Source: Methanobacteriota archaeon (GTDB taxonomy: Archaea > Thermoplasmatota > Poseidoniia > Poseidoniales > Poseidoniaceae). Taken from it: a DNA stretch of 64,000 nucleotides. Below the pieces are notes generated by a model. That model saw only the letters and a list, made by a program, of their open reading frames with translations, did no database searches and was not told the origin of the DNA. The stretch is from positions 14,129 through 78,128 of the forward strand of contig JAYOBJ010000004.1 of assembly GCA_038104845.1 (NCBI GenBank), read 5' to 3'. Below are positions 2,179 to 49,691 of the stretch, piece by piece. Position numbers and translations under genes: made by a program. Within the stretch, counting starts at the first letter, position 1, and each line of letters begins with the position of its first letter.

Positions 2179-3450
2179 TCACTGTACCGAAATGAATCCA
2201 GACGGGTCGGCATCGGCGTCGATGGTGGCATCGTATCCAATTTTGGACGTCTTTCCATCGCTGTACCTCGATGGGTCGAGGGAACTGCCGCGCTGATTGC
2301 TCAGGATGACGGTGTCTTTGTCGGGTTGCCAACGCGTCATCATGGCCCATTCAACACGGACGGGGTCGGCGATGTCGATGTCCTCGTCCACGACGGTGAC
2401 GATTTTCATGCTCTTGTGGCCGTTGAATGCCGCATGAATGGCTTTGATGCCGTCATCGGCGTTTTGTTTCTTGATCTTCAGCACCGCCCCAAGCCAACCG
2501 CAACCACCCTCGGTCATGTGGACGTCGGTGCAGTTGACGACTTTGTTGACCGCTTCTTTGATGGTGGGTGCTCGCGGCAACCCCATCAAGGTCTTGTGCT
2601 CGGCCTCACCTGGAATCAACGCGTGGAAGATTGGGTCCTTTCGGTGCACCAAGCCATCCACCTCGATCACAGGCTCCTGGCGCACATCATCAACGGTGCC
2701 CGTGATGTCGACGTACGGTCCCTCGTCGTCGTTCTCCAACGTGATGCGTCCCCACCATACATATTCCGCATCGGCAGGGGCGTGGACGCCGTTTGGCATT
2801 TCAACAAGGTGCAACGGCGTCCCGTAAAGGCGTTCGTGGAGGGCTGCTGCGATGGTCAGCTCGTCGATGTTCTCGTTGAACGACATCGCCGCTGCGAGCA
2901 ACACGACGGGGTCGGGAGCATTGACAACGGCGACGTTGACTTCCTCGCCCGCTGCCCGGGCCTCATCCACCATCGTTCGCAGGTGGCGCGGGACCAGGCG
3001 AACGACGAGGTGATTCCCATCTCGCAAAAACTGACGGTGGAACGACACGTTGCGAACACCGTTCCGTTCAGCGATGATGATGCTGGCCGAGGAATAACGG
3101 CCTCGGTCCTGGGGCCAATGGTGTGGGATGGGGACGGTCGTCAAATCCACCGACTCGGGTTGATGCTCGAAACATGCGGCTTCCGAACGTTCGACAAGGA
3201 CCGGCGTCGAGGGGTGTTTCATGGCCCACCCCAGGGTGTCGATGTAGGCCTCTGGTTCAATGCCGATGGCGGCGCACAAGCGGTCGCGGGTGAGCATGTT
3301 GATGGCGGAGGCGTGGCCAGGGCACTCCACGATGTTCTCGAAGACCAGCATGCCGTGGCCGCTTGCTTTGGAGCGTTCCATCATCTCGTGGATGAGGCTG
3401 GTCGGGTCCGCCACACGTGTCGCTGCGCCAAGGTGGTCTCGAAACGCCAT
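2179..3450 (-). CDS. UbiD-family (prFMN-dependent) decarboxylase
   Basis: Full-length similarity to the 3-octaprenyl-4-hydroxybenzoate carboxy-lyase family (N-terminal DHLG...GMLVFENIVECPG region, C-terminal WAMMTRWQPDKD). Start set at the internal ATG (MAFRDHL); the ORF extends to a TTG at 3537. Confidence 0.8.
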   Translation of the reverse strand: MAFRDHLGAATRVADPTSLIHEMMERSKASGHGMLVFENIVECPGHASAINMLTRDRLCAAIGIEPEAYIDTLGWAMKHPSTPVLVERSEAACFEHQPESVDLTTVPIPHHWPQDRGRYSSASIIIAERNGVRNVSFHRQFLRDGNHLVVRLVPRHLRTMVDEARAAGEEVNVAVVNAPDPVVLLAAAMSFNENIDELTIAAALHERLYGTPLHLVEMPNGVHAPADAEYVWWGRITLENDDEGPYVDITGTVDDVRQEPVIEVDGLVHRKDPIFHALIPGEAEHKTLMGLPRAPTIKEAVNKVVNCTDVHMTEGGCGWLGAVLKIKKQNADDGIKAIHAAFNGHKSMKIVTVVDEDIDIADPVRVEWAMMTRWQPDKDTVILSNQRGSSLDPSRYSDGKTSKIGYDATIDADADPSGFISVQ

Positions 3451-3561
3451 GTTGCATCGTGTCGGAACCGTCAATTGAATGTTGTTCAACCAACGCACAC
3501 GGGCAGTGCCAACGTTTCCGTCTTTTTCGCCTCGCAAAGGAGTGGACTGTGAGGGATTTGA

Positions 3562-4788: not shown

Positions 4789-6996
4789 ATGGGTCGCAAA
4801 GAAGACAACATCAAGAAAGCAACCGAAGTGATGCACGTCCTCCCACAAATTCGGAATTTGTGCATCGCCGCTCACATCGATCACGGGAAGACGACCTTGT
4901 CCGACAACCTCATCGCCGGTGCCGGCATGATGTCCAACGAATTGGCCGGTGCAGCCCGTGTCCTGGACTTTGACGAGCAGGAGTCGGCTCGTGGCATCAC
5001 CATCAACGCCGCCTCCGCTTCGATGGTTCACGCCGTGGAAGGCACGGACTACCTCATCAACCTCATCGATACCCCGGGTCACGTTGACTTCGGTGGCGAC
5101 GTGACACGCGCCATGCGTGCGGTTGACGGCTGTTTCATCTTGGCCTGTGCGGTCGAGGGCCCCATGCCACAAACCGAAACCGTGGTGCGTCAAGCCTTGA
5201 AGGAGAAGGTGAAGCCGGTCTTGTTCATCAACAAGGTCGACCGCCTCATCAACGAACTTCAGGTCACTCCAGAGGACATGATGGCCCGGTTCACCGAGAC
5301 CATCAAGAAGGTCAACAAACTCATCAAGCAGTTTGCTCCTGAAAACAAGAAGAAGGAATGGCAAGTCTCCGTTCAGGACGGCACGGTCGCCTTCGGCTCC
5401 GCTTACCACAACTGGGGAATCACCGTCCCCTACATGGCTAAATCCGGCATTTCCTTCAAGGAAATTTTCGAGTACTGCAACAACGAGGACCAGCGCACCC
5501 TCGCCCAAAAGGCGCCCGTGCACGAAGTCCTGCTGGACATGGCCGTGACCAAACTCCCCGGCCCCATCGAAGCCCAGAAGTACCGCATCCCCAACATTTG
5601 GACCGGTGACCTTGAGTCCGAGATTGGCCAAGCCATGATCAACTGCAATCCCGAGGCCGAACTCGCCATGATGGTCACGAAGATTTGGATGGACCCCCAC
5701 GCCGGTGAAGTGGCTGTGGGCCGAGTCTATTCCGGTGCCATCAACCAAGGTGAATCGGTGTACGCCATTGGTGCAGCCAAGCCTGAGCGCGTTCAACAGG
5801 TCGCCATGATGGTCGGCGGCGACCGCATCACCGTCCCCAAGGTCGTCGCAGGGAACATCGCCGCCGTGACGGGCATCCGCTCCGCCGCTGCCGGTGTGAC
5901 GCTGTCCCGTGCCAAGGACTTCACCCCCTTCGAAGCCATCCGCCACTACTCGGACCCTGTGGTTACGGTGGCTGTTGAGCCCAAGAGCATGAAGGACCTG
6001 CCCAAGTTCATCGACGCGCTTCGCTCTCTGGCCAAGGCCGATGCCTCCCTTCAGGTGACCACCAACCAGGAAACCGGTGAAGCGCTGCTCGCCGGTATGG
6101 GTGAACTCCACTTGGAAATCACCGTCTACCGCATCGAGGAAGAGCAGAACATCAAGGTCAAGGTCAGCCCGCCCATCGTCGTTTACCGTGAAGGTATCCA
6201 GGGCAGCAACCGTGGCAACGCCTTCGAAGGCAAGTCCCCCAACCGTCACAACCGTTTCTTCTTCGAGATTGAGGCCCTCCCCGCTGAAGTTGTCGCTGCG
6301 CTCCGTGCCGGTGAACTCGGTGACGGTCCTGTTCGCAACTCGGATGCCAAGGAAGTGGGCAACAAGTTCGGCGAGCACGGCATGGACAAGGACGTCATGC
6401 GCAAGATCTACGCCATCAACGGCACCAACGTGCTGGTCAACGACACCAAGGGTATCCAAAACCTCCACGAGACCCGTGAACTGATCATTGAAGCGTTCAA
6501 CGAAGTGTGCGTGAAGGGCCCCATCGCAGACGAACCCGTCCAGGGCATGTTTGTCCGCTTGGTGGACGCCAAGCTCCACGAAGACGCCATCCACCGCGGT
6601 CCAGCCCAAACCATTCCGGCTGTTCGCAACGGCATCAAGGGCGCCATGCTACGAGCCCGCACCGTGTTGCTCGAGCCCATGCAGAAGGCGTTCATTTCGG
6701 TCCCCAACGATTGGTTGGGTCAAGTCACCCGTGAAGTGACGACCCGCCGTGGCATCATCGAAGACATGCCCTCGGAAGGCAGCGTCACCACTGTGGTCGG
6801 TGTCATCCCCATCGCTGAAACCTTCGGGTTCTCCAACGACATTCGCGCTGCCTCCCAAGGTCGTGCTGTGTGGAACACGGAGAACCTCGGTTTCGAAATT
6901 TTGCCACCTCAACTCTTCGACAAAGTGGTTGGTGAAATCCGGACCCGCAAGGGCTTGAAGCCAGAACCCAACCCCGAATCCTACTATGCCGAGTGA
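4789..6996 (+). CDS. fusA: translation elongation factor 2 (aEF-2)
   Basis: GTPase motifs AHIDHGKTT, DTPGH and NKVDR; full-length archaeal EF-2 architecture. Start at MGRKEDN (GTG alternative at 4780). Confidence 0.95.
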   Translation: MGRKEDNIKKATEVMHVLPQIRNLCIAAHIDHGKTTLSDNLIAGAGMMSNELAGAARVLDFDEQESARGITINAASASMVHAVEGTDYLINLIDTPGHVDFGGDVTRAMRAVDGCFILACAVEGPMPQTETVVRQALKEKVKPVLFINKVDRLINELQVTPEDMMARFTETIKKVNKLIKQFAPENKKKEWQVSVQDGTVAFGSAYHNWGITVPYMAKSGISFKEIFEYCNNEDQRTLAQKAPVHEVLLDMAVTKLPGPIEAQKYRIPNIWTGDLESEIGQAMINCNPEAELAMMVTKIWMDPHAGEVAVGRVYSGAINQGESVYAIGAAKPERVQQVAMMVGGDRITVPKVVAGNIAAVTGIRSAAAGVTLSRAKDFTPFEAIRHYSDPVVTVAVEPKSMKDLPKFIDALRSLAKADASLQVTTNQETGEALLAGMGELHLEITVYRIEEEQNIKVKVSPPIVVYREGIQGSNRGNAFEGKSPNRHNRFFFEIEALPAEVVAALRAGELGDGPVRNSDAKEVGNKFGEHGMDKDVMRKIYAINGTNVLVNDTKGIQNLHETRELIIEAFNEVCVKGPIADEPVQGMFVRLVDAKLHEDAIHRGPAQTIPAVRNGIKGAMLRARTVLLEPMQKAFISVPNDWLGQVTREVTTRRGIIEDMPSEGSVTTVVGVIPIAETFGFSNDIRAASQGRAVWNTENLGFEILPPQLFDKVVGEIRTRKGLKPEPNPESYYAE

Positions 6997-7468
6997 TCCG
7001 TTCACCGGTGTCGTGGTCGGGCTGCACGTCAACCCCAACGGCGGGGTGCCCAAGCACCCCGTGGCAACCCTTCGGGTCCATTCCGAGGGTTGCGATGGAG
7101 ACCGCCAGAACGACCGCCGTCACCACGGTGGTCCCGACCGAGCGGTTTGCCTCATGGCGGAAGAAATCTTGACGGAATTGATCGCTGACGGTCATCCCAT
7201 TCATCCGGGGTCAACGGGTGAAAACGTGCTGATCTCCGGGATTGAACCCACGGCGTATGCACCGGGCGTCCACTTGAACTTTGAAAGCGGTGTGGTGCTG
7301 GAAATCACGACGGATGCCCCCCCTTGCGCCACCATTTCTGCATCGTTCATTGACGGCAGGTTCCACGCGCTGTCCCACAAACGGCAGGTGGCCGTCACCC
7401 GCTGGTACGCTCGGGTGGTCGAGGAAGGGAACCTGTCGTTGGGTCAGTCGGTCTTGCATTCTCAATGA
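6986..7468 (+). CDS. MOSC-domain protein (YiiM-like)
   Basis: MOSC-type beta-barrel motifs (GDRQNDRRHHGGPDRAVCL...GENVLISG). Overlaps the aEF-2 stop by 11 nt. Confidence 0.7.
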   Translation: MPSDPFTGVVVGLHVNPNGGVPKHPVATLRVHSEGCDGDRQNDRRHHGGPDRAVCLMAEEILTELIADGHPIHPGSTGENVLISGIEPTAYAPGVHLNFESGVVLEITTDAPPCATISASFIDGRFHALSHKRQVAVTRWYARVVEEGNLSLGQSVLHSQ

Positions 7469-9213
7469 AGACGGGCGAGTTGGAAATCCGTGAGTTCACG
7501 CAGAGCACGCAAGGCAGGGGTTTTGGGGAGCCGGTCCAGGCATTCATGGGCTTCTTGATGAAACGCTTCGGCACGTGAGCGAGCGTAGCCGATGGAACCG
7601 AGTTCATCCAAGGCCTGAAGGGCGGACTTGAGGACCTTGGGGTCAACGTTGTCACCGTGACCCAAGGCGGCGAGCAAGCGATCCTTCGCCGGCTGATCGG
7701 TTTGAGCAAGCGCATGAATGATCATCAACGTGCGCTTCCCTTGGGCCACATCGGAGCCTGCGGGTTTCCCCAAGGTGTCCGAATCCGAGAGCACATCGAT
7801 GAGGTCGTCCATCAGTTGGAAACACAAGCCAACAGCGAGCCCCCACTGAGCCATCAAGGCAATGACATCCTCGTCGGCCCCAGAGATGCGTGCGCCGATT
7901 TCAGCGCAGGTCAGGAACATCACGGCGGTTTTCCCTTCGATCATCTGAAGGTAGTCGGCTTCGTCCACGTCGAGCCGTTCTTCAAATTCGATGTCCATTT
8001 GCTGACCCTCACTGACCCTTCGAACCATCCACGCGATTCGGTTGACAAGTGGCGCCACGTCCTCTGGTTCGAGGTTCTCAGCCTGAACCAAGCGCTCAAA
8101 CGCAATCGCCAGCATGGCGTCGCCTGCATTGATGGCGGTCGGCATCCCGTACTCGATGTGGACGGCATTGCGCCCCCTTCGAAGTTCATCGTCGTCCATG
8201 ATATCGTCGTGGACCAGCGTAAAATTGTGCACGGTTTCAATGGCTGCACCGATGTCCAACAGCCCCGAATGGGTGTCACCGACGGCTTTGGCCACCAGCC
8301 ATGGTAAGGTCGCTCTCATGCGTTTTCCACCGCCTTCGATGAGGTGCATCATGGCTCGGCCAAGTCGCTCGTGTTGCGAGGCTTTGAGGCTGGATTCAAT
8401 CCGCCACTCGACCAAGGACTTGACCTCCCTGATGGACGTGAGAAGGTCGGCACCGACGGCGTCCGGGAGCATGTGGCTGACATCACCCATGTCGTGGATG
8501 AGGTCGTCCGACAACGCCTTGCTCGCTTCCACCTCCCCACAAGCATCCCACCATGCCTCGGTCATGATCCTCGCTGCAATGCAACGGAACCAAGGCGCGA
8601 CCACTTCACCGGGGGACGGTTCCGCCAACAGCATCGCTTCAAGTTCATCGTACGTGACCCATCGGGTGTCGGCCACCTCGTTGGGGTTTGGGTTCACCTG
8701 AAGGTCGGCTTTCATCACGAGAATGTGGTCCAGTTCACGTTCAATCCACGTTTCGTTCATCCGAGCAGCGTAACGCATTTTCGTCATGAACACCATGTCC
8801 TCCATCTTCAGGTGCTCCGGGTCGACGCCCAGTTCCTGTTCCATTTTTCGCACGGCGGCTCGCTTGACACCCATGGCGTTTTCCACATCAAGTTCCCCTT
8901 TGTCGTGGAGTGGATGGGAGCAACAGGTGTTGGCCCACACGCCTGGAAAGGTAACTTTGTCCTCCGACCGTTGTTGCAACAACAGTCGGTGTTGACTGTC
9001 AAAAACGAGCAAACTGAACGCCCGGTGAAATTGACCCTGTCCGCGGTGGGCTTCCACCTTGGATACCGGGCCCAAGACATTGTCCCATTCGTCAACGGCG
9101 ATCAGCGATTCCGCCATCAACGCTGCTTGATGCCGATCGTGGCCCTCGAGCTGCGAGCGTTCTTCATCGCTCAGCACGGTGTGCGGCACATCTTGGATTC
9201 CATAGCCTCCCAT
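7462..9213 (-). CDS. idi-ggps: bifunctional type-1 isopentenyl-diphosphate isomerase / geranylgeranyl-diphosphate synthase (fusion)
   Basis: N-terminal half is eukaryote-like type-1 IDI (HRAFSLLVFDSQHRLLLQQRSEDKVTFPGVWANTCCSHPL). C-terminal half is a trans-prenyltransferase with FARM LVHDDIMDDDELRRG (Phe at -5, short-chain type) and SARM FQLMDDLIDV. Start placed at internal ATG (MGGYGIQ); the ORF extends to 9318 and would then overlap IPK. Confidence 0.85.
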   Translation of the reverse strand: MGGYGIQDVPHTVLSDEERSQLEGHDRHQAALMAESLIAVDEWDNVLGPVSKVEAHRGQGQFHRAFSLLVFDSQHRLLLQQRSEDKVTFPGVWANTCCSHPLHDKGELDVENAMGVKRAAVRKMEQELGVDPEHLKMEDMVFMTKMRYAARMNETWIERELDHILVMKADLQVNPNPNEVADTRWVTYDELEAMLLAEPSPGEVVAPWFRCIAARIMTEAWWDACGEVEASKALSDDLIHDMGDVSHMLPDAVGADLLTSIREVKSLVEWRIESSLKASQHERLGRAMMHLIEGGGKRMRATLPWLVAKAVGDTHSGLLDIGAAIETVHNFTLVHDDIMDDDELRRGRNAVHIEYGMPTAINAGDAMLAIAFERLVQAENLEPEDVAPLVNRIAWMVRRVSEGQQMDIEFEERLDVDEADYLQMIEGKTAVMFLTCAEIGARISGADEDVIALMAQWGLAVGLCFQLMDDLIDVLSDSDTLGKPAGSDVAQGKRTLMIIHALAQTDQPAKDRLLAALGHGDNVDPKVLKSALQALDELGSIGYARSRAEAFHQEAHECLDRLPKTPALRALRELTDFQLARLH

Positions 9214-9271
9214 GGTCACGCCCCCTCCAAGGTCAGCGCGGCGGCTACATGAACAGTTCCACGGCGGTCGG

Positions 9272-10087
9272 TCAACGCTCGTCCGCCAGCAACGACGTTC
9301 CCACCACACTTTTGCCAAGGCAGGCGTCTGTAAGCCGGCCGCGAACCTCGCCGTTCACCAAGATGACCTCGCAACCGTCGCGAGCCGCCTCAAACCCTCG
9401 ATGCACCTTCAAACCAATGCCACCCGTGACGTCCATGTAGGCGGCGTGTTCCCCTTCAAACGCAGTGGATGGGGTCAGCACCTCGATCAGGTCTTGCTCA
9501 AATCCATCCACCGGTGGCGAGCGCAACACGCCATCAACCCCGCCCATGGCGAACACCACACGGGTCACGCGTTCCACCTCCTTGGCCAAGCGAGCCACGA
9601 GGTCATCCCCGGACAGGATGCCGAAGTCGCGGGGCGGTTCGCACGGCACAACATCGCCGTACGTCACCACGACGATGCCGTGGGGTGCCGTTCGAAAGAC
9701 CTCCAAATCGGCGCCGAAATTCAGCCCTGTTCCGTTGACCCAGCGGTGAGGAGACCACCGCACGGCGCTGACATCGTGTGCCGTGAGGGCGTCCATGACG
9801 CGATCGTTGAGTTCCAACATGTCCTGCTGAACGGCTTTGACCGCATCACCTTGCGTCATGTTGCCGTCGGTGAATCCATCGATGTGACCTTCTGCGAGCC
9901 GGTATTGTTTCGCTTTCAAATGACCAAACGAACCCGCTCCATGAACCAAGAGCACGTCGACGCCGTTGTTGATGACGGTCCGCAGTTCTTCAGCGAGGGC
10001 ATCAATGACCTGATCATTGACGGTTTTCATGGTGGATTTGTTGGTGATCAAACCCCCTCCCCATTTCACCACCACGCACGGTCGCAT
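9272..10087 (-). CDS. ipk: isopentenyl phosphate kinase (amino-acid-kinase fold)
   Basis: VVKWGGGLITNK glycine-rich loop, LVHGAGSFGH and the overall AAK fold typical of archaeal IPK. Confidence 0.85.
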   Translation of the reverse strand: MRPCVVVKWGGGLITNKSTMKTVNDQVIDALAEELRTVINNGVDVLLVHGAGSFGHLKAKQYRLAEGHIDGFTDGNMTQGDAVKAVQQDMLELNDRVMDALTAHDVSAVRWSPHRWVNGTGLNFGADLEVFRTAPHGIVVVTYGDVVPCEPPRDFGILSGDDLVARLAKEVERVTRVVFAMGGVDGVLRSPPVDGFEQDLIEVLTPSTAFEGEHAAYMDVTGGIGLKVHRGFEAARDGCEVILVNGEVRGRLTDACLGKSVVGTSLLADER

Positions 10088-11230: not shown

Positions 11231-11317
11231 GCCTCATGAACCCTGCGGGATGGGTTGACGCAGAAACCACGCCCTGGCAAGCGAGGGTATCAAGGACCGA
11301 AGGGTGGTGGCAACGGC

Positions 11318-12490
11318 ATGGTGAACGTGGCGATGGTCGGCGCTGGCCAAACCAAGTACGGCAATCATCCACTGGGGCTCAAAGGGATGTGGGCCGAGGC
11401 TGCTGAACAGGCCTTCGCGTCGATTGACGGTGACGTTGAACCCCAACAGGTGGACGAGGCGTTCATCGGTAGCCTGGCCTTCGGCGGGGCCCAATTGGGC
11501 AACACCGCCGCGTTGTTGACCGAGCACTCCCGAATGAAGGGCGTTCCGGTTCGCCGGGTGGAAAATGCATGCGCCTCTTCGGGTTACGCCCTTCGAGATG
11601 CCTGGATGGCCATCAAATCCGGTCAAGCGGACATCGTGGTGGCCGGTGGCATCGAGAAAATGAACGACTTAACACCCGAGCGCAAGCGGTACTGGCTCGG
11701 GGTGTCCGGTGACACGGAATGGGAACGCCTCGCTGGGTTGACCTTTCCTGGTACCTACGCCTTGATGGCACGCCGACATTTTCACGAACACGGAAGCACA
11801 CACGACGACCTCGTTCACATCAGTGTCAAAAATCATCTCCACGGGTCGATGAATGCCAAAGCACACATTCAGAAAGCGGTGGATTTCGAGAAAGCCGCCT
11901 CAGGCTTCATGGTGGCTGACCCCCTTACGCTGTACGACTGTTGCCCCACCTCGGACGGTGCTTCGTGCGTTGTGCTGGCGGCCGACCACGTCGCACGGCG
12001 ATTGACCGACACACCGGTGTGGATCAACGGGTCCGGTGCGGCCTCGGACCATCTGGCTCTCCACGACCGGCCAAGCATCACGCGACTCGCTGCCACCCAG
12101 CAAGCCGCTCGGCGAGCCTATGCCCAGGCCGGCGTGTCAGCAGGCGACATTGACCTTGCTGAGGTTCACGATTGCTTCACCATCGCCGAGTTGCTGGCCA
12201 CCGAAGACCTCGGTTTCGCAGCCGCCGGTGAAGGGGGTGTGTTCGCCCGCAACGGGGAGGGCCGCCTCAACGAGGGCGACGTCACCATCAACGCCAGTGG
12301 TGGCCTCAAATCGAAAGGTCATCCACTCGGTGCCACCGGAACCGGTCAAGCGGTCGAGGTCTTTCAACAACTTCGGCACGAGGTGGGGAACCAACGGCAA
12401 GTGCGCGACGCAGAAGTGGCCCTCACGCACAACGTGGGTGGTTCGGGTGCCACGTGTGCGGTCCATGTGTTCGGTCGGGAGGTGGCCTGA
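11318..12490 (+). CDS. thiolase (acetyl-CoA C-acetyltransferase, archaeal SCP-x-like type)
   Basis: Thiolase-fold motifs: VENACASSGYAL active-site Cys region, and C-terminal NASGGLKSKGHPLGATG, HNVGGSGAT. Start at MVNVAMVGAG. Confidence 0.85.
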   Translation: MVNVAMVGAGQTKYGNHPLGLKGMWAEAAEQAFASIDGDVEPQQVDEAFIGSLAFGGAQLGNTAALLTEHSRMKGVPVRRVENACASSGYALRDAWMAIKSGQADIVVAGGIEKMNDLTPERKRYWLGVSGDTEWERLAGLTFPGTYALMARRHFHEHGSTHDDLVHISVKNHLHGSMNAKAHIQKAVDFEKAASGFMVADPLTLYDCCPTSDGASCVVLAADHVARRLTDTPVWINGSGAASDHLALHDRPSITRLAATQQAARRAYAQAGVSAGDIDLAEVHDCFTIAELLATEDLGFAAAGEGGVFARNGEGRLNEGDVTINASGGLKSKGHPLGATGTGQAVEVFQQLRHEVGNQRQVRDAEVALTHNVGGSGATCAVHVFGREVA

Positions 12491-13308
12491 TGGACGAACA
12501 CCTTGTCTGGCAAGGTTACCTGCTCAGTCACCACGATGCGTTCACCGTGGTGCAATCGCCGTTCACGCTGACCGGCGCCCGTGTCTTTGGTGCAGACAGC
12601 GACCCAACCACCCTTGCCGTCGCTGCGTTGCTCCACCGGATCGGAACGGAACGGGTGGACTCGGTGAGCGTCCCTGAGGGCATGGACGGCCCCACCTTGG
12701 CCGCAGCATGCGGTGTGAAAGTGGCCAGCGAGGACGACCTTGATGCCTGCTCGTGGGACCTGATGCTCAGCGATGAGGCCGTGGTGGTGTTGGCCAAGCG
12801 TGGAGCGGACTTGACCATCCCCCACCTCGATGTCGAAGTGCCGGTCGATGCTCAAGAACACGCTGCTATGGAGGAGGCTTGGTCGAAGGAACTCCATCCG
12901 CAGCACGTGAGTCAAGGTGCCTTTGTGTCGGAGGCAGCGTACGTTGAGGGTGCGGGTGCTCGACTGGCCATGGAAGGTCAGCGAACCCGAGGCACCGTGG
13001 TGTGGCCGCCCCGCTTCGGCGACCACGGTTCAGCCGAGTCCACCAACGTCCACCGCACTGGCGAGGTGTTGTCGTGGACAGCGCTGAGCGCTGCGGGAGC
13101 CCCCTCGGAATTTGCGTTGCGAGCGCCGTTGTTGGGTGGCTTGGCCACGGTGTTGTTGCACTTGGAGGACGGGCCCAACGGTGTGTTCCTCCTGGTGGAC
13201 GATGAAGATCACGACATCACCATGGGGGCATCGGTGGAATTGGTCCTGCGTCGCCTTTACGCCCAAGAGGGGTTCATGCGTTACGGGCTTAAAGGTCGGC
13301 TCGTTTGA
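12490..13308 (+). CDS. thiolase-associated protein with a C-terminal DUF35-like OB-fold domain
   Basis: ATG overlaps the thiolase stop (TGATG). C-terminal 90 aa resemble the DUF35 OB-fold (GEVLSWTAL...GGLATVLLHLEDGPNGVFLLVDDEDHDITMGASVELVLRRLYAQEGFMRYGLKG) but carry no 4-Cys zinc ribbon. N-terminal 180 aa are unassigned. Confidence 0.6.
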   Translation: MDEHLVWQGYLLSHHDAFTVVQSPFTLTGARVFGADSDPTTLAVAALLHRIGTERVDSVSVPEGMDGPTLAAACGVKVASEDDLDACSWDLMLSDEAVVVLAKRGADLTIPHLDVEVPVDAQEHAAMEEAWSKELHPQHVSQGAFVSEAAYVEGAGARLAMEGQRTRGTVVWPPRFGDHGSAESTNVHRTGEVLSWTALSAAGAPSEFALRAPLLGGLATVLLHLEDGPNGVFLLVDDEDHDITMGASVELVLRRLYAQEGFMRYGLKGRLV

Positions 13309-13354
13309 TGGCATCAAAGAGTTCATAGAAAACCGTGTCACCATCACCGTTATG

Positions 13355-14368
13355 GCTGGTTTTGGCGGCATGCGCAAAGGTCGAGAAGAAGCGAAGACCA
13401 ACCTTGGTTTCACCGAAGGTGGCGATTGCCCTCGCTGCGGTGGGAACGCACAGGATTCCAGCATGGCGGGTTACTTGCAGTGCGGCTCGTGCATGCACGA
13501 ATGGGCCGATCCAAATTACGTCGAAGAGCGTCGCCGTCCCGAGCCTCCCACACATCGCCGTGATGCCGAGTTGATTGAGCAATTCAAATCCGAAATGGCA
13601 TCGGGTGAATTGGCGAATGTCTTGGGCGTGAACAAGAATTTGACGGGCGCGCAGGAGCAATCCCTCAAGCGCCTTGAAGACAAGTGGATGAGCGGGATGC
13701 AAGGTCACTACAACGCCGCCTCGGAGGAGCGGAAGCCCTTGATGATCAGTTTTGATGACGACGACAACATCGTGTCCACCGAAGTCGCGGCCATCACCAT
13801 CGTGTCCAACGGGTTTGACGGTGGTGAGGAGATTCGACTGGAATACCCCGGCCGTGGGACCGAATTTTACGCCTACAACGAGCGCAGCCCCACCGGTTGG
13901 AAGCGTGGACGGGACGCCGAGGCCACCGCCCGTTCCATCGCGAACGTCATCAACCGGTCAAGCCGTTTGGTCTATGCCAACCTGCAAGGGCACCGCATCT
14001 CGTTTGAGCTTCGCGAACATGACCTCAAGCCAGAATCCTTTGTCATCTTCGTCGACGACCCGGGCGGCACCGACATCGTCGCCGAAAAGGGGGGTGTGGT
14101 GCTGGATCACCGCGACTTCTCAACCCTCCAGGACTACCGAACGGTGGTTGAAATGGTCCTCGAGGATGGCATCATTTCCCCAAGCGAAGACCAACTGCTT
14201 TGGGCCATGCGCCAACAACTCAACATCGACGATGCCTACCACGTTCAGATGGTCATCGACATCTGCGGCGAACACACGCTGAAGGAATGCACCTCGTGCA
14301 GCGGGATGGCCGAGTTGTATCCCGAGTACGCCGCTTGGTACTGCCATGCGTGCGAAGCGTGGTGCTGA
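13355..14368 (+). CDS. hypothetical protein with N- and C-terminal zinc ribbons and a TerB-like C-terminal motif
   Basis: CPRCGG-x11-CGSC at the N-terminus and CTSCSG-x13-CHAC at the C-terminus; DGIISPSEDQLLWAMRQQL resembles TerB-type helices. Start at the internal ATG (MAGFGG). Confidence 0.55.
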   Translation, partial: AGFGGMRKGREEAKTNLGFTEGGDCPRCGGNAQDSSMAGYLQCGSCMHEWADPNYVEERRRPEPPTHRRDAELIEQFKSEMASGELANVLGVNKNLTGAQEQSLKRLEDKWMSGMQGHYNAASEERKPLMISFDDDDNIVSTEVAAITIVSNGFDGGEEIRLEYPGRGTEFYAYNERSPTGWKRGRDAEATARSIANVINRSSRLVYANLQGHRISFELREHDLKPESFVIFVDDPGGTDIVAEKGGVVLDHRDFSTLQDYRTVVEMVLEDGIISPSEDQLLWAMRQQLNIDDAYHVQMVIDICGEHTLKECTSCSGMAELYPEYAAWYCHACEAWC

Positions 14369-14486
14369 ACGCACGCAAACGACCGTTCTATAGGACCGTC
14401 CATCGGTGTTCCACATCGCTCTCCTCGCAACGTGAACGTCGATGGGTCAAGGGACCTTTCATAAAGTGAAGGGACTACGCAACCCC

Positions 14487-15512
14487 ATGGCCAACGAAAC
14501 GCTGTACATTGGAATCGATTTGGGGACGTTCCGTTCCGTGATGGTGTCGTCCGACAGCCACGAAGTCGAAGAACTGACCGTCATCGGCACCCCCAAAGAC
14601 CCCATCGCGCGCAATTTCTTGAAGCGAGATGTGCTCTTCGGCCACGAGGCCCTGAAGAACCGCTTGGCACTCAACCTGTTCCGGCCGCTTGAACTCGGTG
14701 TCATCAAGGACACGCCAGAAGACCGCGAATTCATCGCCCACTTCATCACCCACCTCATCGGCTTGGCCGACCCCGAGGAATACGACCGTGTGGTCGCCGT
14801 CATCGGTGCACCGGCCGAAGCCAGCCACGTTGACAAGACGGCCATCTTTGACGCTGCAGCGGGTTCCGTGAACTCGGCCATGATCATTTCAGAACCGTTT
14901 GCTGTCGCCTACGCCTTGGACATGATCACCCACACCCTGGTCATCGACATCGGTGCCGGCACCACGGACTTGTGCCGTGTGTACGGGACCATCCCCGGCC
15001 CTGGCGACCAGATGCACACCGGTCACGCTGGCGACTTCGTTGACAACCAACTCATCAAGGAAATCACGGCCAAATACAACGGTGCACAGGTCACCAAGGA
15101 CATGGCTCGACGCTGGAAAGAACAGTACTCCTTCGTGTCCACCGCAACGCCTGACGAGCCCGTGCTTGTCGACTTCTCAATCGAAGGCAAGGCCATGACC
15201 CTCGACATCACCGATTGCATGCAGCGTGCCTGCGAATCGATCGTTGACCCCATCGTCGAGAACGTGAAGAAGCTCATCGCCGGTTCCAACCCCGAATACC
15301 ACGACGAGTTCCGCAAGAACATGGTCCTCGCCGGTGGCGGCTCGTCCATCAAGGGCCTTGGTGCCCTCATCGAACGGCGACTCTCCGACATGGGCGATGT
15401 GAACGTTCACGTTGTGGACGACCCCGTTCGCCTCGGTGCCATGGGTGGCCTTCGGTTGGCCATGGAAGTCCCCGAGGACATGTGGAAGAACCTCACCTTG
15501 GCATCTCGCTGA
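14487..15512 (+). CDS. actin-fold ATPase, MreB/archaeal-actin-like
   Basis: Phosphate-1 LYIGIDLGTFRS, connect-1 ISEPFAVAYALD, phosphate-2 LVIDIGAGTTD, adenosine motif VLAGGGSSIKGL, plus VDDPVRLGAMGG. Start at MANETLY. Confidence 0.75.
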   Translation: MANETLYIGIDLGTFRSVMVSSDSHEVEELTVIGTPKDPIARNFLKRDVLFGHEALKNRLALNLFRPLELGVIKDTPEDREFIAHFITHLIGLADPEEYDRVVAVIGAPAEASHVDKTAIFDAAAGSVNSAMIISEPFAVAYALDMITHTLVIDIGAGTTDLCRVYGTIPGPGDQMHTGHAGDFVDNQLIKEITAKYNGAQVTKDMARRWKEQYSFVSTATPDEPVLVDFSIEGKAMTLDITDCMQRACESIVDPIVENVKKLIAGSNPEYHDEFRKNMVLAGGGSSIKGLGALIERRLSDMGDVNVHVVDDPVRLGAMGGLRLAMEVPEDMWKNLTLASR

Positions 15513-23382: not shown

Positions 23383-24621
23383 ATGGAAGCACACCTTCTT
23401 GAAGCGAAAGCGGAACAGACAGACATGGTTGCGAACGCGTTGGCTGGGGCTCACCCAGAGTGGCCGGTTCGGCTCGCCACATCCCTCCGTCAAGAGTCAT
23501 GGTCCACCACTCTGCAACCGATCGTTGAAAAATTAAGCCAAAACATCCCGCTTTCCGTTGATGATGGTTTGTTGTTGTACCGCCACCCCGACCTTCATGA
23601 AGTGGGCCGCCTCGCCCACCATGCTCGGCGCGCTCGGTTTGGCTTGCGCACGTTCTTCAACGCGAACGTTCACATCAACCAAACGAACGTCTGTGTGCTG
23701 GCTTGCAAGTTCTGTGCGTTTCGTCGGGGTCCAAAAGCGAAGGACGCCTATGCCATGGAGGTTCAGGAGTACATCGATGATGTGAGCCAGTACGCCGCCC
23801 ACGTTGACGAAGTTCACTCCGTCGGTGGCTTGCACCCTGACTGGGATGTCGACCACTACGTGGCCATGTTTGAAGGGGTGCGGGCCCTTCACCCCCATTT
23901 GAGCCTCAAAGCGCTCACGGCGGTGGAGATCAAACACCTCGCTCAACAATCGGACCTTTCGACCAAAGATGTTCTTCAACGACTGAAAAACGCCGGCCTC
24001 ACCTCGTTGCCGGGCGGCGGTGCGGAGATTCTCGATGACGATGTGCGTGCCCACATCTGCAACGGCAAGGAAAGCTCAGAGGAATACCTCCGAATTCATC
24101 AGGAGGCCCATGAAATCGGTCTTCCATCGAACTGCACGATGTTGTTTGGCACGGTGGAATCGCTTGAGCAGCGGTTGCATCACATGATGGCCCTGCGAGC
24201 GTTGCAATCACGTACCGGTGGGTTCCAATGTTTCGTTCCCTATCCATTCCTACCCGATGCCTCCCGTCTCCCCGAAGCACAATTGGCCACCGCCGCTGAA
24301 GTGGTTCGCACCATCGCCGTGTCCAGGCTGATGCTGAACAACATCCCCCACATCAAAGCCTACCGAATGAACATCGGTGACCATTTGGCAGAACTGGCGC
24401 TGCAATACGGCGCCGACGACATCGACGGGACGGTCCAAAAAGAATCCATCATGCACCTTGCCGGTTCAACAACGCCCTTGGATCACGACCGAAACAACCT
24501 GGCACGGTTGATTCGAGACGCCGGAGGTGAACCCATTCAACGCAACACGGTCTACACCCGTTTCGCTCCCTACGTGCCCGTGGAGGTGCCGCCACGAACA
24601 TCGTTGCCCATGGCGTCTTGA
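23383..24621 (+). CDS. mqnC/E: radical-SAM menaquinone (futalosine pathway) enzyme, MqnC/MqnE family
   Basis: CVLACKFCAF radical-SAM cluster motif in the MqnC/MqnE-type TIM-barrel context. MqnC and MqnE cannot be told apart by eye. Confidence 0.8.
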   Translation: MEAHLLEAKAEQTDMVANALAGAHPEWPVRLATSLRQESWSTTLQPIVEKLSQNIPLSVDDGLLLYRHPDLHEVGRLAHHARRARFGLRTFFNANVHINQTNVCVLACKFCAFRRGPKAKDAYAMEVQEYIDDVSQYAAHVDEVHSVGGLHPDWDVDHYVAMFEGVRALHPHLSLKALTAVEIKHLAQQSDLSTKDVLQRLKNAGLTSLPGGGAEILDDDVRAHICNGKESSEEYLRIHQEAHEIGLPSNCTMLFGTVESLEQRLHHMMALRALQSRTGGFQCFVPYPFLPDASRLPEAQLATAAEVVRTIAVSRLMLNNIPHIKAYRMNIGDHLAELALQYGADDIDGTVQKESIMHLAGSTTPLDHDRNNLARLIRDAGGEPIQRNTVYTRFAPYVPVEVPPRTSLPMAS

Positions 24622-24633
24622 GGTGAACCGTTC

Positions 24634-25425
24634 ATGTCGACTTGGTCAACGACTCTGGGCCGTGTGGCCTTCATCAACTGCGATCCTTTGTTCCACGATT
24701 TGGACGCCTCATGGAACGTCCTCGCCGCGCCACCGGCATGGTTGACCGGCCATGTGTTGCGCAGGGATTGCATCATCGCACCCGTTCCTGCCGCCGACTA
24801 CGCCAAGCATCAGGATGAATTGGTGCTCCTCCCTGACATTGGCATCGGATCGGAAGGTGAGGTGGGCAGCGTGCTGTTGTTTGGTGCCCAGCCCATCGAA
24901 TCGATGAACACCATTGCGCTGCCTTCGGACTCCGCATCGTCGGTGGCCTTGCTCAAGCACCTCTTGAAAACCCAAGGCCTTCCCATGAACTACATCACCA
25001 CCGGCCCCGATTACGAACTCATGCTGGGCCGTGCTGATGGCGCGCTGCTCATCGGTGATCGGGCGCTGGAGGTCGCCAAAGCGTTCCCCGATATGGTCCG
25101 TATGGACTTGGGTCAGGCGTGGTTGGACCGGCACGACCTGCCCATGATTTTTGGCGTCTTCGTGGCTCGAAAGGACACGCCGTTGCACCTCGTTCAAGCC
25201 GCCCATCAAGCCCTTTTGACCAACCTTGAGGGGTTTGAGTCGGATTCGGCAAAGCGTCATGCGGTGATTGAGTGGTCAATGACGCGGTCGGACCTCGCCT
25301 ACGACCGACTTGACCAGTATTACGGCGAGGTGTTCAATCGGTTGAATTCTCACCACGTGAAGGGACTCAAAACCTTCCTGCGTGAGGCGTGTGGTTTGAA
25401 GGACGAACCCGAGTTTGCATGGTGA
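24634..25425 (+). CDS. mqnA: chorismate dehydratase MqnA
   Basis: VAFINCDPLFHDL (YLN..PL-type) and periplasmic-binding-protein-like fold typical of MqnA. Confidence 0.8.
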   Translation: MSTWSTTLGRVAFINCDPLFHDLDASWNVLAAPPAWLTGHVLRRDCIIAPVPAADYAKHQDELVLLPDIGIGSEGEVGSVLLFGAQPIESMNTIALPSDSASSVALLKHLLKTQGLPMNYITTGPDYELMLGRADGALLIGDRALEVAKAFPDMVRMDLGQAWLDRHDLPMIFGVFVARKDTPLHLVQAAHQALLTNLEGFESDSAKRHAVIEWSMTRSDLAYDRLDQYYGEVFNRLNSHHVKGLKTFLREACGLKDEPEFAW

Positions 25426-34743: not shown

Positions 34744-35373
34744 TCAAGCGCCCAGCCGCTCACGGACGGCATCCATCACCTGTCGCCCATCGGTTCGCAC
34801 CTGTTCTCGAATGCCGTCCAGTTGGTCACGCATGCTGGTGCCCATGTCGTCGGGCAAGCTGGCCAAGTTGATGTCAACGTTGAACAAAGCGCCTTTGGCG
34901 GCGGCACTGGCCAGCAATCCTGCCACCCCGACATCCGATGCGGCGTTTCCGTTGCCTTTGAGGGCAAGTTCTGGAAGCAGCCTCAGCAAGTCGGCGGCTT
35001 TTTGTGCTGTTTCGAAGGGAATCTCTGCAGCGTGCAACGTGGCCGCTCGAATCGCTGTTCGACGTGCAGCCACCTCAGTTTCATTGTTTTTTGGAAGTTT
35101 GAACGCGGCCATCACCTGGTCAAAGGCTTCACTGTCCTGTTGAGCCAAATCGCCCGAGACACGCATCAATGGAATAGCTGCGGTTTGAACACGCTCTGCG
35201 ATGGACCAGCCATCCGACCATTTCTCATTGTTGAGGGTTAAATCGGCCACCATAATGCTCAGTGCAGAGGCTTGACCGAGGGCGACCGCAGCGGCGGTAC
35301 CGCCGCCGGGCGTGGGTGAGGAAGAAGCCAGCGCAGCCAAAAAATCCCGTTGGGTCATCTCCATCCAGTTCAT
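34744..35373 (-). CDS. formimino-/methenyl-tetrahydrofolate cyclodeaminase (FtcD C-domain-like / FchA)
   Basis: FLAALASSSPTPGGGTAAAVALGQASALSIMV is the classic cyclodeaminase/cyclohydrolase signature. The start sits within a few codons of the upstream gene stop. Confidence 0.8.
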   Translation of the reverse strand: MNWMEMTQRDFLAALASSSPTPGGGTAAAVALGQASALSIMVADLTLNNEKWSDGWSIAERVQTAAIPLMRVSGDLAQQDSEAFDQVMAAFKLPKNNETEVAARRTAIRAATLHAAEIPFETAQKAADLLRLLPELALKGNGNAASDVGVAGLLASAAAKGALFNVDINLASLPDDMGTSMRDQLDGIREQVRTDGRQVMDAVRERLGA

Positions 35374-36422
35374 GCGTTCAACCCCTGAATGGCCCACTCA
35401 ATGATGCTTTCCTCGGGTTCAAACCGGTGGTGATGACGCAATCCAAGCCCGTTGATGGCCGCATTGACCAACTCGCGTTCATCGGCCGATTCGGGGAGGT
35501 AGTATCTGCCAGCAGCCAGCATGGCGTTCAGTGGAACCAGCCCAACGATTTCACTACCGGGTGTCTGCACTCCGTGGTCGCCGATGACGCTTTTCACCGT
35601 CTCATAGGCATAATGAAGCGGGCACGCTTCAACATCCAGGAGATTCATGGAAACTTGAGCGATGCCCAATTCCTCCAACGCCACCCCCATGCCCTGGACG
35701 CTCGGCAAGAGCCCTTGGGTCCTCATCCGTATTCCGGTGGGTGATTTGAGCAAACGTCCACTGGACCGCACCAGCGAACCGACTTTCTTCGCCACGGCGG
35801 CATCGCGTTCATCGACGTTGACGTTGTACGCAACAAGAATGGGCCGTGCCCCCACCGTGATGCCGCCCGAACGTGCCACCGTCTCGGACCAAGCCATGGC
35901 ACCCACATCGGGCATCATGGTGGTCGCTCCGTGGCGTTCGTTGCTCCCGTCGAACCGAGATGACAATTCCTCGTACTCGCCCTTGCGGAGGTTCGAGAGC
36001 ACCGTACGGTCCGGATGTGATGCTGCCGCACCGTACAAAAAGAGCGGGACCTCCACGGCCTCGGCAACCTGCGCCACCGTTTGACGAGCCAGTTCTGCAC
36101 ATGCCTCCATGGTGATGCCACGAAGCGGAACAAAGGGGCAGACATCAACCGCACCCAACCGAGGATGTTCGCCTTGGTGGCCCCTCATGTCGATCTCATC
36201 CACCGCAGCAAGAATCAGTGCCACCGCACCGCGTTGAACCGGTCCCGGCTCGCCTGCGAGGGTGATGACGGTTCGGTGGTAATCTCGGTCTGGTTCCACC
36301 CCAAGCACATGGCAGCCTTCAATGCCTCGTGCGGCTGAAACGATACGCCCGATCTTCTCGTCGTCTCTGCCCTCCGATATGTTGGGGACGCATTCAACCA
36401 AAACTCCTGAGTTCATGGCCAC
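35370..36422 (-). CDS. glutamate formiminotransferase (FtcD N-domain-like)
   Basis: VECVPNISEGRD N-terminal signature and formiminotransferase N-/C-subdomains. Confidence 0.85.
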   Translation of the reverse strand: MAMNSGVLVECVPNISEGRDDEKIGRIVSAARGIEGCHVLGVEPDRDYHRTVITLAGEPGPVQRGAVALILAAVDEIDMRGHQGEHPRLGAVDVCPFVPLRGITMEACAELARQTVAQVAEAVEVPLFLYGAAASHPDRTVLSNLRKGEYEELSSRFDGSNERHGATTMMPDVGAMAWSETVARSGGITVGARPILVAYNVNVDERDAAVAKKVGSLVRSSGRLLKSPTGIRMRTQGLLPSVQGMGVALEELGIAQVSMNLLDVEACPLHYAYETVKSVIGDHGVQTPGSEIVGLVPLNAMLAAGRYYLPESADERELVNAAINGLGLRHHHRFEPEESIIEWAIQGLNA

Positions 36423-45048: not shown

Positions 45049-45146
45049 CTGTGCACGCCTAGCGTTCCCGATTTTTGATGTTGTGGACAGAAGGCTCGTG
45101 GGCGGTTGCAACAAGCCTCAAAGGCAACCGTCGTTGAGAAGTGGCC

Positions 45147-47180
45147 ATGGCGGAGGATTGGGGGCCGCTTCGTCAAACCATTCTCGAGGGCATCCCTGAT
45201 TCCCTGCCCCCACGGCAACCTTTGGACCCAAATGTCGACCATGCCCCCGCTCGAAAACAAGTCCTCACGGCCGAAGAAAAACACCTTGCCGTGTGCAATG
45301 CATTGCGTTACTTTCCTCCGGTTCATCATCAACCGTTGTACCCCGAATTCATGGAGGAATTGGAATCCTTCGGGCGCATCTTGATGCGACGTCTTCGGCC
45401 CACAGCGCACCCCATGCGGGCCCATCCCATCGAGGCCTATCCTGCAAAGACCCAGCAAGCTGCTTCCATCATGCTGATGATTCAAAACAACCTTGACCCC
45501 GATGTTGCTCAATTCCCGCATGAATTGATCACGTACGGTGGAAACGGTTCGGTGTTTCAAAATTGGGCGCAGTACCGACTGGCCATGAAATACCTCAGTG
45601 AGATGGGTGAGGACCAAACGTTGGTGATGTATTCAGGTCACCCAATGGGCCTCTTTCCATCGTCACCTGACGCTCCGAGGGTGGTTGTCACCAACGGCAT
45701 GGTGATTCCGAACCACTCATCCCCTGCCGACTACGAACGGATGAACGCACTCGGTGTGACGCAATACGGTCAAATGACAGCAGGGTCCTACATGTACATC
45801 GGACCTCAAGGCATTGTCCATGGCACCACCATTACCCTGTTGAATGCGGCACGCATGCACCTCGGTCTTGACGACGATTCCACCTTGGCCGGCGTGACCT
45901 TCGTCACGAGCGGTTTGGGCGGGATGTCCGGCGCACAAGCCAAAGCTGCAACCATCGCTGGCGCAGCATGCATCATCGCCGAAGCCAACGCCCATGCGGC
46001 TCACAAGCGACATGAACAGGGTTGGTTGACGGATGTCACGGACGATGTTGATGAGGCGATCGATCTCATGATTGAGGCGGCGAGCACCGGTTCAACGATC
46101 TCCATCGGGTACATCGGCAACATCGTTCGACTGTGGGAGCGGTTGGTCGACCGCGAAGTCAAGGTTGACCTCGGAAGCGATCAAACCAGTCTGCACAACC
46201 CGTTTCAAGGCGGCTATTTCCCTGTGGACCGTTCGTTCGAAGAGGCGTCGGTGATGATGTCCTCCGACCCTGAGGGGTTTGAGGATGCCGTGCGAGCCAC
46301 GCTGCGAAGGCACGCAGATGCCATCAACACCATGGTTGAGCAAGGGATGTACTTCTGGGATTACGGCAACGCCTTCCTGCTTGAAGCATCACGCGCAGGT
46401 GCCGATGTGATGGCATCGGACGGCTCGTTCCGATATCCAAGCTACGTTGAAGACATCATGGGGCCGTTGTGCTTTGACTATGGGTTCGGACCCTACCGTT
46501 GGATCTGCACCAGCGGCCTCGCGTCGGATTTGGAAGAAACCGATCGCATTGCCGAATCCATCCTGGTCCAGATGCTCGCTGAAGCACCCAACGAGATTCG
46601 ACGTCAAATTCAAGACAATCTGATTTGGATTCGCCAAGCTGGGCACAATGCACTGGTGGTCGGTAGCCAGGCCCGCATTCTCTACGCCGATGACGAGGGC
46701 CGGCGACGCATCGCACAAGCCATGAACCAAGCCGTTCGGGACGGTCGGCTCCAAGGTCCGGTCGTCTTGGGCCGGGACCATCACGATGTGTCCGGTACAG
46801 ACAGCCCCTATCGAGAAACAGCCAACATTCGTGATGGGTCGATGTACACCGCCGACATGGCCGTGCAAAACGCAATTGGTGATGCGTTTCGGGGTGCCAC
46901 CTGGGTCAGTCTTCACAACGGCGGCGGGGTTGGATGGGGAGAAGTGATCAACGGTGGCTTCGGTTTACTCTTGGACGGCTCCGACGATGCATCTCGGAAA
47001 TTAAACAACATGTTGCACTGGGACGTCAACAACGGCGTGGCCCGTCGCGCCTGGGCTCGCAACCCGGGTGCGGCGTTTGCCATTCGAAGGGCCATGGAGG
47101 CCAACGACCGATTGAAGGTCACCGTGCCCCATCTCGTTGATGAGGGTGTTCTGAACGGTCCGGGGGGGCGTCCGTCGTGA
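45147..47180 (+). CDS. hutU: urocanate hydratase (long, eukaryote-like form)
   Basis: VCNALRYFP...YPEF, NAD-binding GLGGMSGAQ, and overall 676-aa architecture. Confidence 0.9.
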   Translation: MAEDWGPLRQTILEGIPDSLPPRQPLDPNVDHAPARKQVLTAEEKHLAVCNALRYFPPVHHQPLYPEFMEELESFGRILMRRLRPTAHPMRAHPIEAYPAKTQQAASIMLMIQNNLDPDVAQFPHELITYGGNGSVFQNWAQYRLAMKYLSEMGEDQTLVMYSGHPMGLFPSSPDAPRVVVTNGMVIPNHSSPADYERMNALGVTQYGQMTAGSYMYIGPQGIVHGTTITLLNAARMHLGLDDDSTLAGVTFVTSGLGGMSGAQAKAATIAGAACIIAEANAHAAHKRHEQGWLTDVTDDVDEAIDLMIEAASTGSTISIGYIGNIVRLWERLVDREVKVDLGSDQTSLHNPFQGGYFPVDRSFEEASVMMSSDPEGFEDAVRATLRRHADAINTMVEQGMYFWDYGNAFLLEASRAGADVMASDGSFRYPSYVEDIMGPLCFDYGFGPYRWICTSGLASDLEETDRIAESILVQMLAEAPNEIRRQIQDNLIWIRQAGHNALVVGSQARILYADDEGRRRIAQAMNQAVRDGRLQGPVVLGRDHHDVSGTDSPYRETANIRDGSMYTADMAVQNAIGDAFRGATWVSLHNGGGVGWGEVINGGFGLLLDGSDDASRKLNNMLHWDVNNGVARRAWARNPGAAFAIRRAMEANDRLKVTVPHLVDEGVLNGPGGRPS

Positions 47181-49591: not shown

Positions 49592-49691
49592 GGTTCCCGT
49601 TGGACTCCACCGTCTAAAGAAATACCTCCAACAATACCACGCCCGTCAAGAATTATATCCGAAGTGGTCCTCCTCACCATTGGGTGGTCCA

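Follow-up and report, generated by a model that had tools for sequence, protein, structure and literature searches.

Can one archaeal gene supply both the isomerase and the synthase that turn isopentenyl diphosphate (IPP) into geranylgeranyl diphosphate (GGPP), and if so, how did such a gene come about? The question is raised by a minus-strand open reading frame (ORF) in a 64,000-nucleotide stretch of contig JAYOBJ010000004.1 (assembly GCA_038104845.1), hereafter the window. Archaeal isoprenoid lipids and other prenyl compounds are built from GGPP, and archaea normally use a type-2 IPP isomerase (IDI2), which depends on flavin mononucleotide (FMN), as do the outgroup loci described below. An earlier note on this DNA, made from its letters alone, had described a type-1 isomerase (IDI1) fused to a short-chain prenyltransferase, beside a gene for isopentenyl phosphate kinase (IPK). 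We consider it quite probable that this is a genuine bifunctional gene of the Poseidoniales, one that would convert IPP via dimethylallyl diphosphate (DMAPP) to GGPP on a single polypeptide and that would have arisen by replacement of IDI2 followed by one fusion to the GGPP synthase (GGPPS). We infer the enzyme activities, the C20 product, co-transcription with IPK, the dimeric state and any kinetic advantage from sequence.

A single reading frame joins an isomerase domain to a synthase domain

The fused gene lies at positions 7462..9213 of the window (minus strand) and encodes 583 amino acids followed by a TGA stop codon at 7462-7464. A Pfam scan of the protein, as the earlier note had suggested, found NUDIX (residues 62-200, 53 bits) and polyprenyl_synt (residues 282-534, 225 bits) in one frame, which bears out the single ORF of 580-600 residues that had been proposed. 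The longest minus-strand ORF runs from an upstream TTG at 9318 to 7462 and corresponds to 618 residues. The ATG at 9213 is the most likely true start, because a GGAGG sequence (9228-9224) is located 10 nt before it, Met occupies the aligned start position in 69/79 homologues, and residues 4-10 are conserved among homologues. The resulting N-terminal extension (residues 1-25, 9139..9213, minus strand) is itself conserved, with Y4, I6, D8, V9 and P10 invariant in 25 homologues of 73-98% identity. Residue conservation was otherwise checked in 79 fused proteins that are 62-98% identical overall to the window protein. In this set, 29 catalytic and ligand residues distributed over both domains are invariant, except for one substitution (D341N) in one protein. 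The motifs read by eye earlier, namely TCCSHPL, the first aspartate-rich motif (FARM) DDIMDDD with a Phe at position −5, and the second aspartate-rich motif (SARM) DDLID, are all present in the translation. No solved chain in the PDB covers both halves.

The N-terminal half (residues ~26-244, 8482..9138, minus strand) passed the cut-offs of two curated models: TIGR02150, the NCBIfam equivalog for type-1 IDI (152.2 bits, cut-off 105.8), and PRK03759 (139.7 bits, cut-off 127). Human IDI1 matched it with 176 bits and was 41% identical across 203 residues, a region that covers all active-site motifs, whereas the E. coli Idi match reached only 46 bits; the domain shares 49% identity with the IDI of Endozoicomonas montiporae, a marine gammaproteobacterium. 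On these matches the domain is classed in the long, eukaryote-like IDI1 subfamily. A neighbor-joining IDI tree was star-like inside this subfamily, and therefore no donor lineage can be named. Residues C98, E158/E160, H56, H63, H100, Y148 and W208 align with the human and E. coli enzymes, which would make C98 and E160 the catalytic residues and H56, H63, H100 and E158 the metal ligands. All nine of H56, H63, C97, C98, H100, Y148, E158, E160 and W208 are invariant in 79/79 proteins.

The C-terminal half (residues 248-583, 7465..8472, minus strand) is a type-I short-chain trans-prenyl diphosphate synthase that resembles GGPPS (PF00348, 224.7 bits). Its FARM comprises D336-D342 (8188-8208, minus strand), with F331 at position −5, and its SARM comprises D469-D473 (7795-7809, minus strand). 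DDIMD (336-340, a FARM without insertion), DDLID and F331 are each invariant across the 79 proteins. A bulky aromatic residue five positions before the FARM limits the chain to C20. The 20 synthase ligand residues, which include K297, R298, F331, K428, Q466, K483, K493 and the FARM and SARM aspartates, are likewise invariant apart from the D341N substitution. The top solved relatives are archaeal GGPPS enzymes (5jfq, 217 bits; 1wy0, 193 bits). The stretch ETVHNFTLVHDDIMD, which holds the FARM and the chain-length positions, and the region HNFTLVHDDIMD around F331 are both identical in the Geoglobus acetivorans enzyme 5jfq. The assignment as a short-chain prenyltransferase is thus upheld, and the identity of the chain-length region to 5jfq fits a C20 product.

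The two domains meet at residues 236-257 (8443..8508, minus strand), where the sequence D..IHDMGDVSHMLPDAVGADL is nearly invariant over the 79 fused proteins. This junction (IHDMGD..MLP.A.GA.L) ranks among the best-conserved stretches of the whole protein. Its first part, IHDMG, matches the C-terminal tail of long IDI1 enzymes; its second part, MLPDA, corresponds to the N-terminal MSLPD of GGPPS enzymes that stand alone, with M248 at the position of their start Met. The unfused loci L083 and L085 show the same correspondence, as their IDI ends in ...GDLT* and their GGPPS begins with MSLPD..., and both ends align with the junction. There is effectively no flexible linker between the domains as aligned, and the high conservation points to a constrained, structured joint and not to a tolerated accident.

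The fused gene is found across the Poseidoniales

We scanned one genome per GTDB species and kept the best 80 loci of 594 candidate stretches. A single full-length tblastn segment was recovered from 78/80 of these loci, each from a different GTDB species, with no stop or frame change; the other two were cut short. The earlier note had named a stop or frameshift between the halves as what would overturn the fusion. The 80 loci are from Poseidoniales or euryarchaeal metagenome-assembled genomes (MAGs), bar one labelled Rhodobiaceae, and include the original Marine Group II (MGII) chromosome CM001443.1. The window itself has a GC content of ~58-59%, and its nearest relatives place it in the Poseidoniaceae (MGIIa). 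Among 5.8 billion proteins searched, more than 120 protein clusters of 583-595 residues had both Pfam domains, with 73-98% identity. Named proteins among them are 'Candidatus Poseidonia sp.' or 'Thermoplasmatota archaeon', and the sources include JGI, ENA, NCBI and Logan. An exhaustive search of 1.84 billion representatives collapsed the Poseidoniales family to one 50%-identity cluster, P0121, and also brought up relatives in which the enzymes stand alone. With the frame uninterrupted in 78/80 assemblies and present in more than 120 independent clusters, the fusion is therefore not a product of chance or of assembly.

The same fusion was thus found in related archaeal MAGs, at 62-98% identity, where it had been suggested to look. 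The further suggestion that it is not a standard annotated architecture stands in one respect, since annotation pipelines give the protein the name of a single half ('isopentenyl-diphosphate delta-isomerase' at NCBI, 'geranylgeranyl diphosphate synthase type I' at JGI), but not in another, as the architecture is common in public data and occurs in at least 80 GTDB species-representative genomes.

IPK precedes the fused gene

The gene for IPK (271 residues, 9272..10087, minus strand) was identified by NF040647 IPPK_Arch (159.1 bits, cut-off 120), by PF00696 and by a VHGAGSFGH motif. It had been described as back-to-back with the fusion, but the two genes are arranged head-to-tail, with IPK upstream on the same strand. 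They are separated by a 58-nt spacer (9214..9271, minus strand), in which GGAGG occupies 9228-9224 and an AT-rich TATA-like element is absent. The steps from isopentenyl phosphate to GGPP are indeed encoded within 2.6 kb, as stated at the outset. IPK is upstream on the same strand in 78/80 loci, and the arrangement suggests that IPK and the fused gene are probably co-transcribed as an operon with IPK as the first gene. Consistent with the earlier reading, six-frame phmmer searches detected no type-2 FMN isomerase in the 64-kb window. No second IDI1 or polyprenyl synthase was found there by the same searches or by Pfam scans of ORFs of 325-400 residues.

Three locus states and a proposed origin

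Isomerase and synthase occur in three arrangements among the loci compared. In L082, L089 (a 3.0-Mb contig) and L091, IPK, an FMN_dh protein (IDI2) and GGPPS are encoded by three separate genes; L090 has IPK and IDI2 before its contig ends and shares the MreB-like, Tpt1 and small genes. A second group of marine loci with 35-36% GC (L083-L088, including GCA_002720095.2; at least 12 protein clusters) carries IPK, an IDI1 of 224-235 residues and a GGPPS of 332 residues, all unfused. In these loci 4 nt are shared between the IDI1 stop and the GGPPS start (ACATGAGT, ACTTGAGT; ATGA or TTGA). The fused state is found in all remaining loci. Neighbor-joining trees of EF-2 and of the GGPPS domain agree with one another: in both, loci with IDI2 occupy the outermost branches, and the unfused IDI1 loci are the sister clade of a single clade made up of all fused loci. 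The latter consists of L081, a subclade with 576-residue proteins (40-45% GC), and a subclade with 583-585-residue proteins that contains the window. From GC content and tree position we would guess that the 576-residue subclade is MGIIb and the unfused low-GC clade MGIII.

The three locus states and the agreeing trees suggest that IDI2 was replaced in place and that one fusion to GGPPS followed. The ancestral Thermoplasmatota operon would have contained IPK, IDI2 and GGPPS. In the line leading to the Poseidoniia, a horizontally acquired, eukaryote-like IDI1 would have taken the place of IDI2, with its stop codon overlapping the GGPPS start (ATGA) such that translation of the two genes was coupled. 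A small indel at this overlap would then have fused IDI1 and GGPPS once, before the sampled fused lineages, which bear Poseidoniales names, diverged. In-place replacement, coupling and single fusion make up the simplest reading of the loci, in which the direction of transfer and the donor are presumptive. No Poseidoniales name appeared among the best 120 relatives of the outgroup IDI2, which is consistent with loss of IDI2 and is not proof of it.

Genes surrounding the fusion

EF-2 and IPK flank the fused gene in nearly all loci. Genes for MOSC, Tpt1, thiolase, DUF35-like and MreB-like proteins are kept in most of them; MOSC is missing from a few, and one clade has no thiolase gene at this location. 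The MOSC-domain gene of the window (6986-7468, plus strand) is convergent with the fused gene, and its 3' end overlaps the stop of the latter (7462-7468), a convergent layout that most of the loci retain. Between IPK and Tpt1, and divergent from IPK, is a gene for a small protein of 112-132 residues (~10112/10172-10510, plus strand) with a C-terminal zinc ribbon (CQKC...CPAC). It has a tblastn match in 73/80 loci and no Pfam or NCBIfam match in the window; the gene at its position in L081 and L082 has a weak DUF7575 match.

Several neighbors touch on isoprenoid metabolism. Less than 2 kb from IPK, at 11255-13308 (plus strand), a thiolase gene (PRK06064, 436 bits) is followed by one for a DUF35-like OB-fold protein (weak OB_ChsH2_C match). 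In archaea such a pair works with hydroxymethylglutaryl coenzyme A synthase. No gene for that enzyme is adjacent to the pair, as 13112-14368 has no family match and 14442-15512 encodes an MreB/actin-like protein. A UbiD-family decarboxylase of 452 residues (2179-3537, minus strand; TIGR00148, 307 bits) is encoded divergently beside the S12-S7-EF2 genes, ~4 kb from IPK, and UbiD is found in the same place in L081-L083 and L085-L089, which are outgroup and sister loci. The protein may supply IPK with its substrate as anhydromevalonate-phosphate decarboxylase, or it may be a decarboxylase of the menaquinone pathway; the former role is tentative because only the generic UbiD subfamily model matches and menaquinone genes are present in the window. 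These are genes of the futalosine route (23383-25425, plus strand), encoding an MqnE-like radical SAM enzyme (422.6 bits, cut-off 434.55) and then a VitK2_biosynth protein of the MqnA/MqnD type, and they imply another consumer of prenyl diphosphates in the organism.

Farther away, a 638-residue protein (49590-51506, plus strand) combines several EF-hand pairs with a double zinc ribbon, an unusual find in an archaeon. Near it are histidine-utilization genes for urocanase (45141-47180), histidine ammonia-lyase (47177-48730) and formiminotransferase-cyclodeaminase (34744-36422).

Discussion

In the pathway that we propose, IPK would phosphorylate isopentenyl phosphate to IPP, and the N-terminal IDI would isomerize part of this IPP to DMAPP in a metal-dependent reaction with a Cys98/Glu160 proton shuttle. 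The C-terminal synthase would then condense one DMAPP with three IPP to give GGPP (C20). The fusion would fix the isomerase and synthase activities at a 1:1 ratio and, because such synthases are homodimers, would put an isomerase beside each elongation site. A bolder version, which we put forward tentatively and rather doubt, is a channelling dimer that takes in nothing but IPP, the one C5 compound that the mevalonate route yields, and releases GGPP alone, with DMAPP passed from site to site without equilibrating with the cytosol and a rigid junction keeping the sites in register. The conserved junction without a flexible linker is an indirect hint on this point. A competing explanation, which we regard as a real contender although we would not bet on it, is that the fusion was neutral: an indel at the overlapping stop and start codons of two coupled genes would have joined them with no kinetic benefit, and the domains would exchange DMAPP via bulk solution. 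The sister clade already has the ATGA/TTGA overlap, where a shift of one or two bases suffices to fuse the genes, and IDI-prenyl synthase fusions elsewhere are rare singletons. Neutrality is credible because the unfused arrangement persists in that clade, which is diverse (at least 12 protein clusters). It fits less well with a junction that is among the best-conserved stretches of the protein, suggesting a structured joint, and with retention of the fused state, without a confirmed reversion, in 79 species-level lineages.

Some of our results weigh against the bifunctional reading or the history proposed for it. The synthase domain did not reach the NCBIfam equivalogs IdsA_Meth (NF040698, 289 bits, cut-off 468) and GGPP_syn (NF041003, 262 bits, cut-off 500), and therefore it is filed under the broader type-I class only and the length of its product rests on motif logic. 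It is unlikely, in our estimate, that the C-terminal half is not a dedicated GGPPS and makes both farnesyl diphosphate (FPP) and GGPP, in the manner of the bifunctional enzymes known from some methanogens and Thermococcus, or a C25 product. Scores below every equivalog cut-off would allow for this, the geranylfarnesyl diphosphate synthase model being also below its cut-off at 233 bits, and the menaquinone genes of the window need prenyl donors, with no second synthase seen in the window. However, the Phe at −5 and the insertion-free FARM are invariant, the region is identical in the G. acetivorans GGPPS, and the IdsA and GGPP_syn models score best of all. The halves of L081 (a 1.9-Mb long-read contig, 8001-9760) are in different frames and were called as two ORFs, with a 1-nt change at TGGTGG^CC after which the conserved junction peptide continues in the other frame. 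A 290-residue product of the L081 type is present on three large contigs. We had initially read L081 as an unfused relative and dropped this reading in favor of a fused gene with a frame change, which may be a systematic homopolymer error, as a G lost from a G-run of a polished long-read assembly would explain the observation, or a real recent split. L081 illustrates that a one-base error at the junction can flip a gene call, but that the single ORF is itself an assembly or sequencing artefact joining two adjacent genes is hardly conceivable given the same continuous frame in 78/80 independent assemblies and more than 120 protein clusters, and a junction peptide conserved at the protein level. 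That the NUDIX half is a Nudix hydrolase or an inactive regulatory domain is very improbable. The generic Pfam NUDIX match is weak (53 bits), but the curated type-1 IDI cut-off is passed, the alignment to human IDI1 is extensive, none of the IDI-specific residues (Cys, Glu-x-Glu, His, Tyr and Trp) varies, and the domain occupies the exact operon slot of IDI2 in the outgroups. An AlphaFold2 model from a 25-sequence alignment had a mean pLDDT of 69.9 and a pTM of 0.58, with residues 249-379 below 50; its quality was too poor to judge domain packing and it was set aside. The locus comparison, and thus any statement on further IDI or prenyl synthase genes, covers ~20 kb per genome. The trees are neighbor-joining trees without support values and were rooted by assumption on L082 or L091.

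Metabolic engineers build artificial fusions of IDI with prenyltransferases to raise terpenoid yields, and the Poseidoniales protein is a natural, evolutionarily optimized counterpart. If it does channel DMAPP, terpenoid engineering would have in it a natural scaffold ready for use. The two enzymes are each familiar, and consecutive enzymes are often found fused; this fusion is lineage-wide and evolutionarily tidy, and not mechanistically surprising. The locus illustrates clearly how a gene is first replaced and then fused, the successive IDI2, IDI1 and fused stages all being found in living lineages. If the fusion did originate once, after IDI1 displaced IDI2, it would be a rare-genomic-change marker for the base of the Poseidoniales. 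MGII, for which no culture has ever been obtained, rank among the most abundant archaea in surface ocean waters. The composition of their membranes is disputed, as they lack glycerol-1-phosphate dehydrogenase and have bacterial-type lipid genes (PMC6461757, PMC7852524). An order-wide IPK/IDI-GGPPS module under strong purifying selection suggests that GGPP supply is a core function of MGII cells, and the fusion offers a single, easily cloned protein with which to test this supply in vitro. The full-text literature searched (including PMC4153887, PMC7852524, PMC6461757, PMC11052028 and PMC5389931) contained no description of an IDI-GGPPS fusion in MGII or Poseidoniales; such absence is no proof, and the fusion is apparently undescribed.

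Comparison with known systems

A close counterpart of the locus is the IPK/IDI2/GGPPS operon of other Thermoplasmatota (L082, L089 and L091, with L090 ending early), which encodes these three steps in an unchanged order of genes. EF-2, S7, S12, UbiD and the small gene upstream of IPK, which belong to the wider neighborhood of the fusion locus, are present in L082 and L089 as well. The GGPPS of this operon is orthologous to that of the fusion (54% identity), whereas its isomerase, an FMN enzyme (PF01070), is unrelated to IDI1, and none of the three genes is fused to another. The fold and active-site residues of the N-terminal domain are those of type-1 isomerases such as human IDI1 (PDB 2icj/2dho) and E. 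coli Idi (PDB 1nfs), and the long C-terminal helix and tail of the eukaryote-like subfamily are shared with the human enzyme. Known type-1 isomerases are stand-alone proteins of 180-290 residues, but in the fusion the IDI tail runs straight into the prenyl synthase. Similarly, 5jfq (Geoglobus acetivorans) and 1wy0 (Pyrococcus horikoshii) have the same SARM and IPP-binding residues as the fusion and are stand-alone enzymes of 322-342 residues, whereas the N-terminus of the synthase in the fusion is covalently extended by the isomerase.

Fusions with the same domain order, NUDIX/IDI then polyprenyl_synt, are rare in metagenomes: P0122 (557 residues), P0135 (556 residues), P0210 (527 residues), P0213 (514 residues) and P0266 (504 residues) are 30-43% identical to the Poseidoniales protein and are singletons or belong to two-member clusters. 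P0135 has a FARM region resembling that of eukaryotic type-III enzymes. P0210 and P0213 have the short bacterial type of IDI and are placed outside the long-IDI group in the IDI tree, and P0266 is of the short type by eye. P0122 (JGI 3300072015, a 3.2-kb contig) is 43% identical, and has a junction ~20 residues longer. Its neighbors encode a response regulator and a histidine kinase, and it is no closer to any one of the studied clades than to the others. These five look like independent fusions, none of them a widespread lineage trait. One further protein, P0190 (797 residues), whose cluster holds a 'farnesyl-diphosphate farnesyltransferase', probably has an IDI-squalene synthase architecture. 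A fusion of the latter kind, PtIDISQS of diatoms, is described in PMC12168105, which cites Fabris et al. 2014. In PtIDISQS, as in the Poseidoniales protein, nature has joined a eukaryote-type IDI1 to an enzyme of isoprenoid chain metabolism. Its host is a eukaryote, however, and its squalene synthase partner uses neither DMAPP nor IPP, whereas the partner in the Poseidoniales would directly consume the product of the isomerase to which it is joined.

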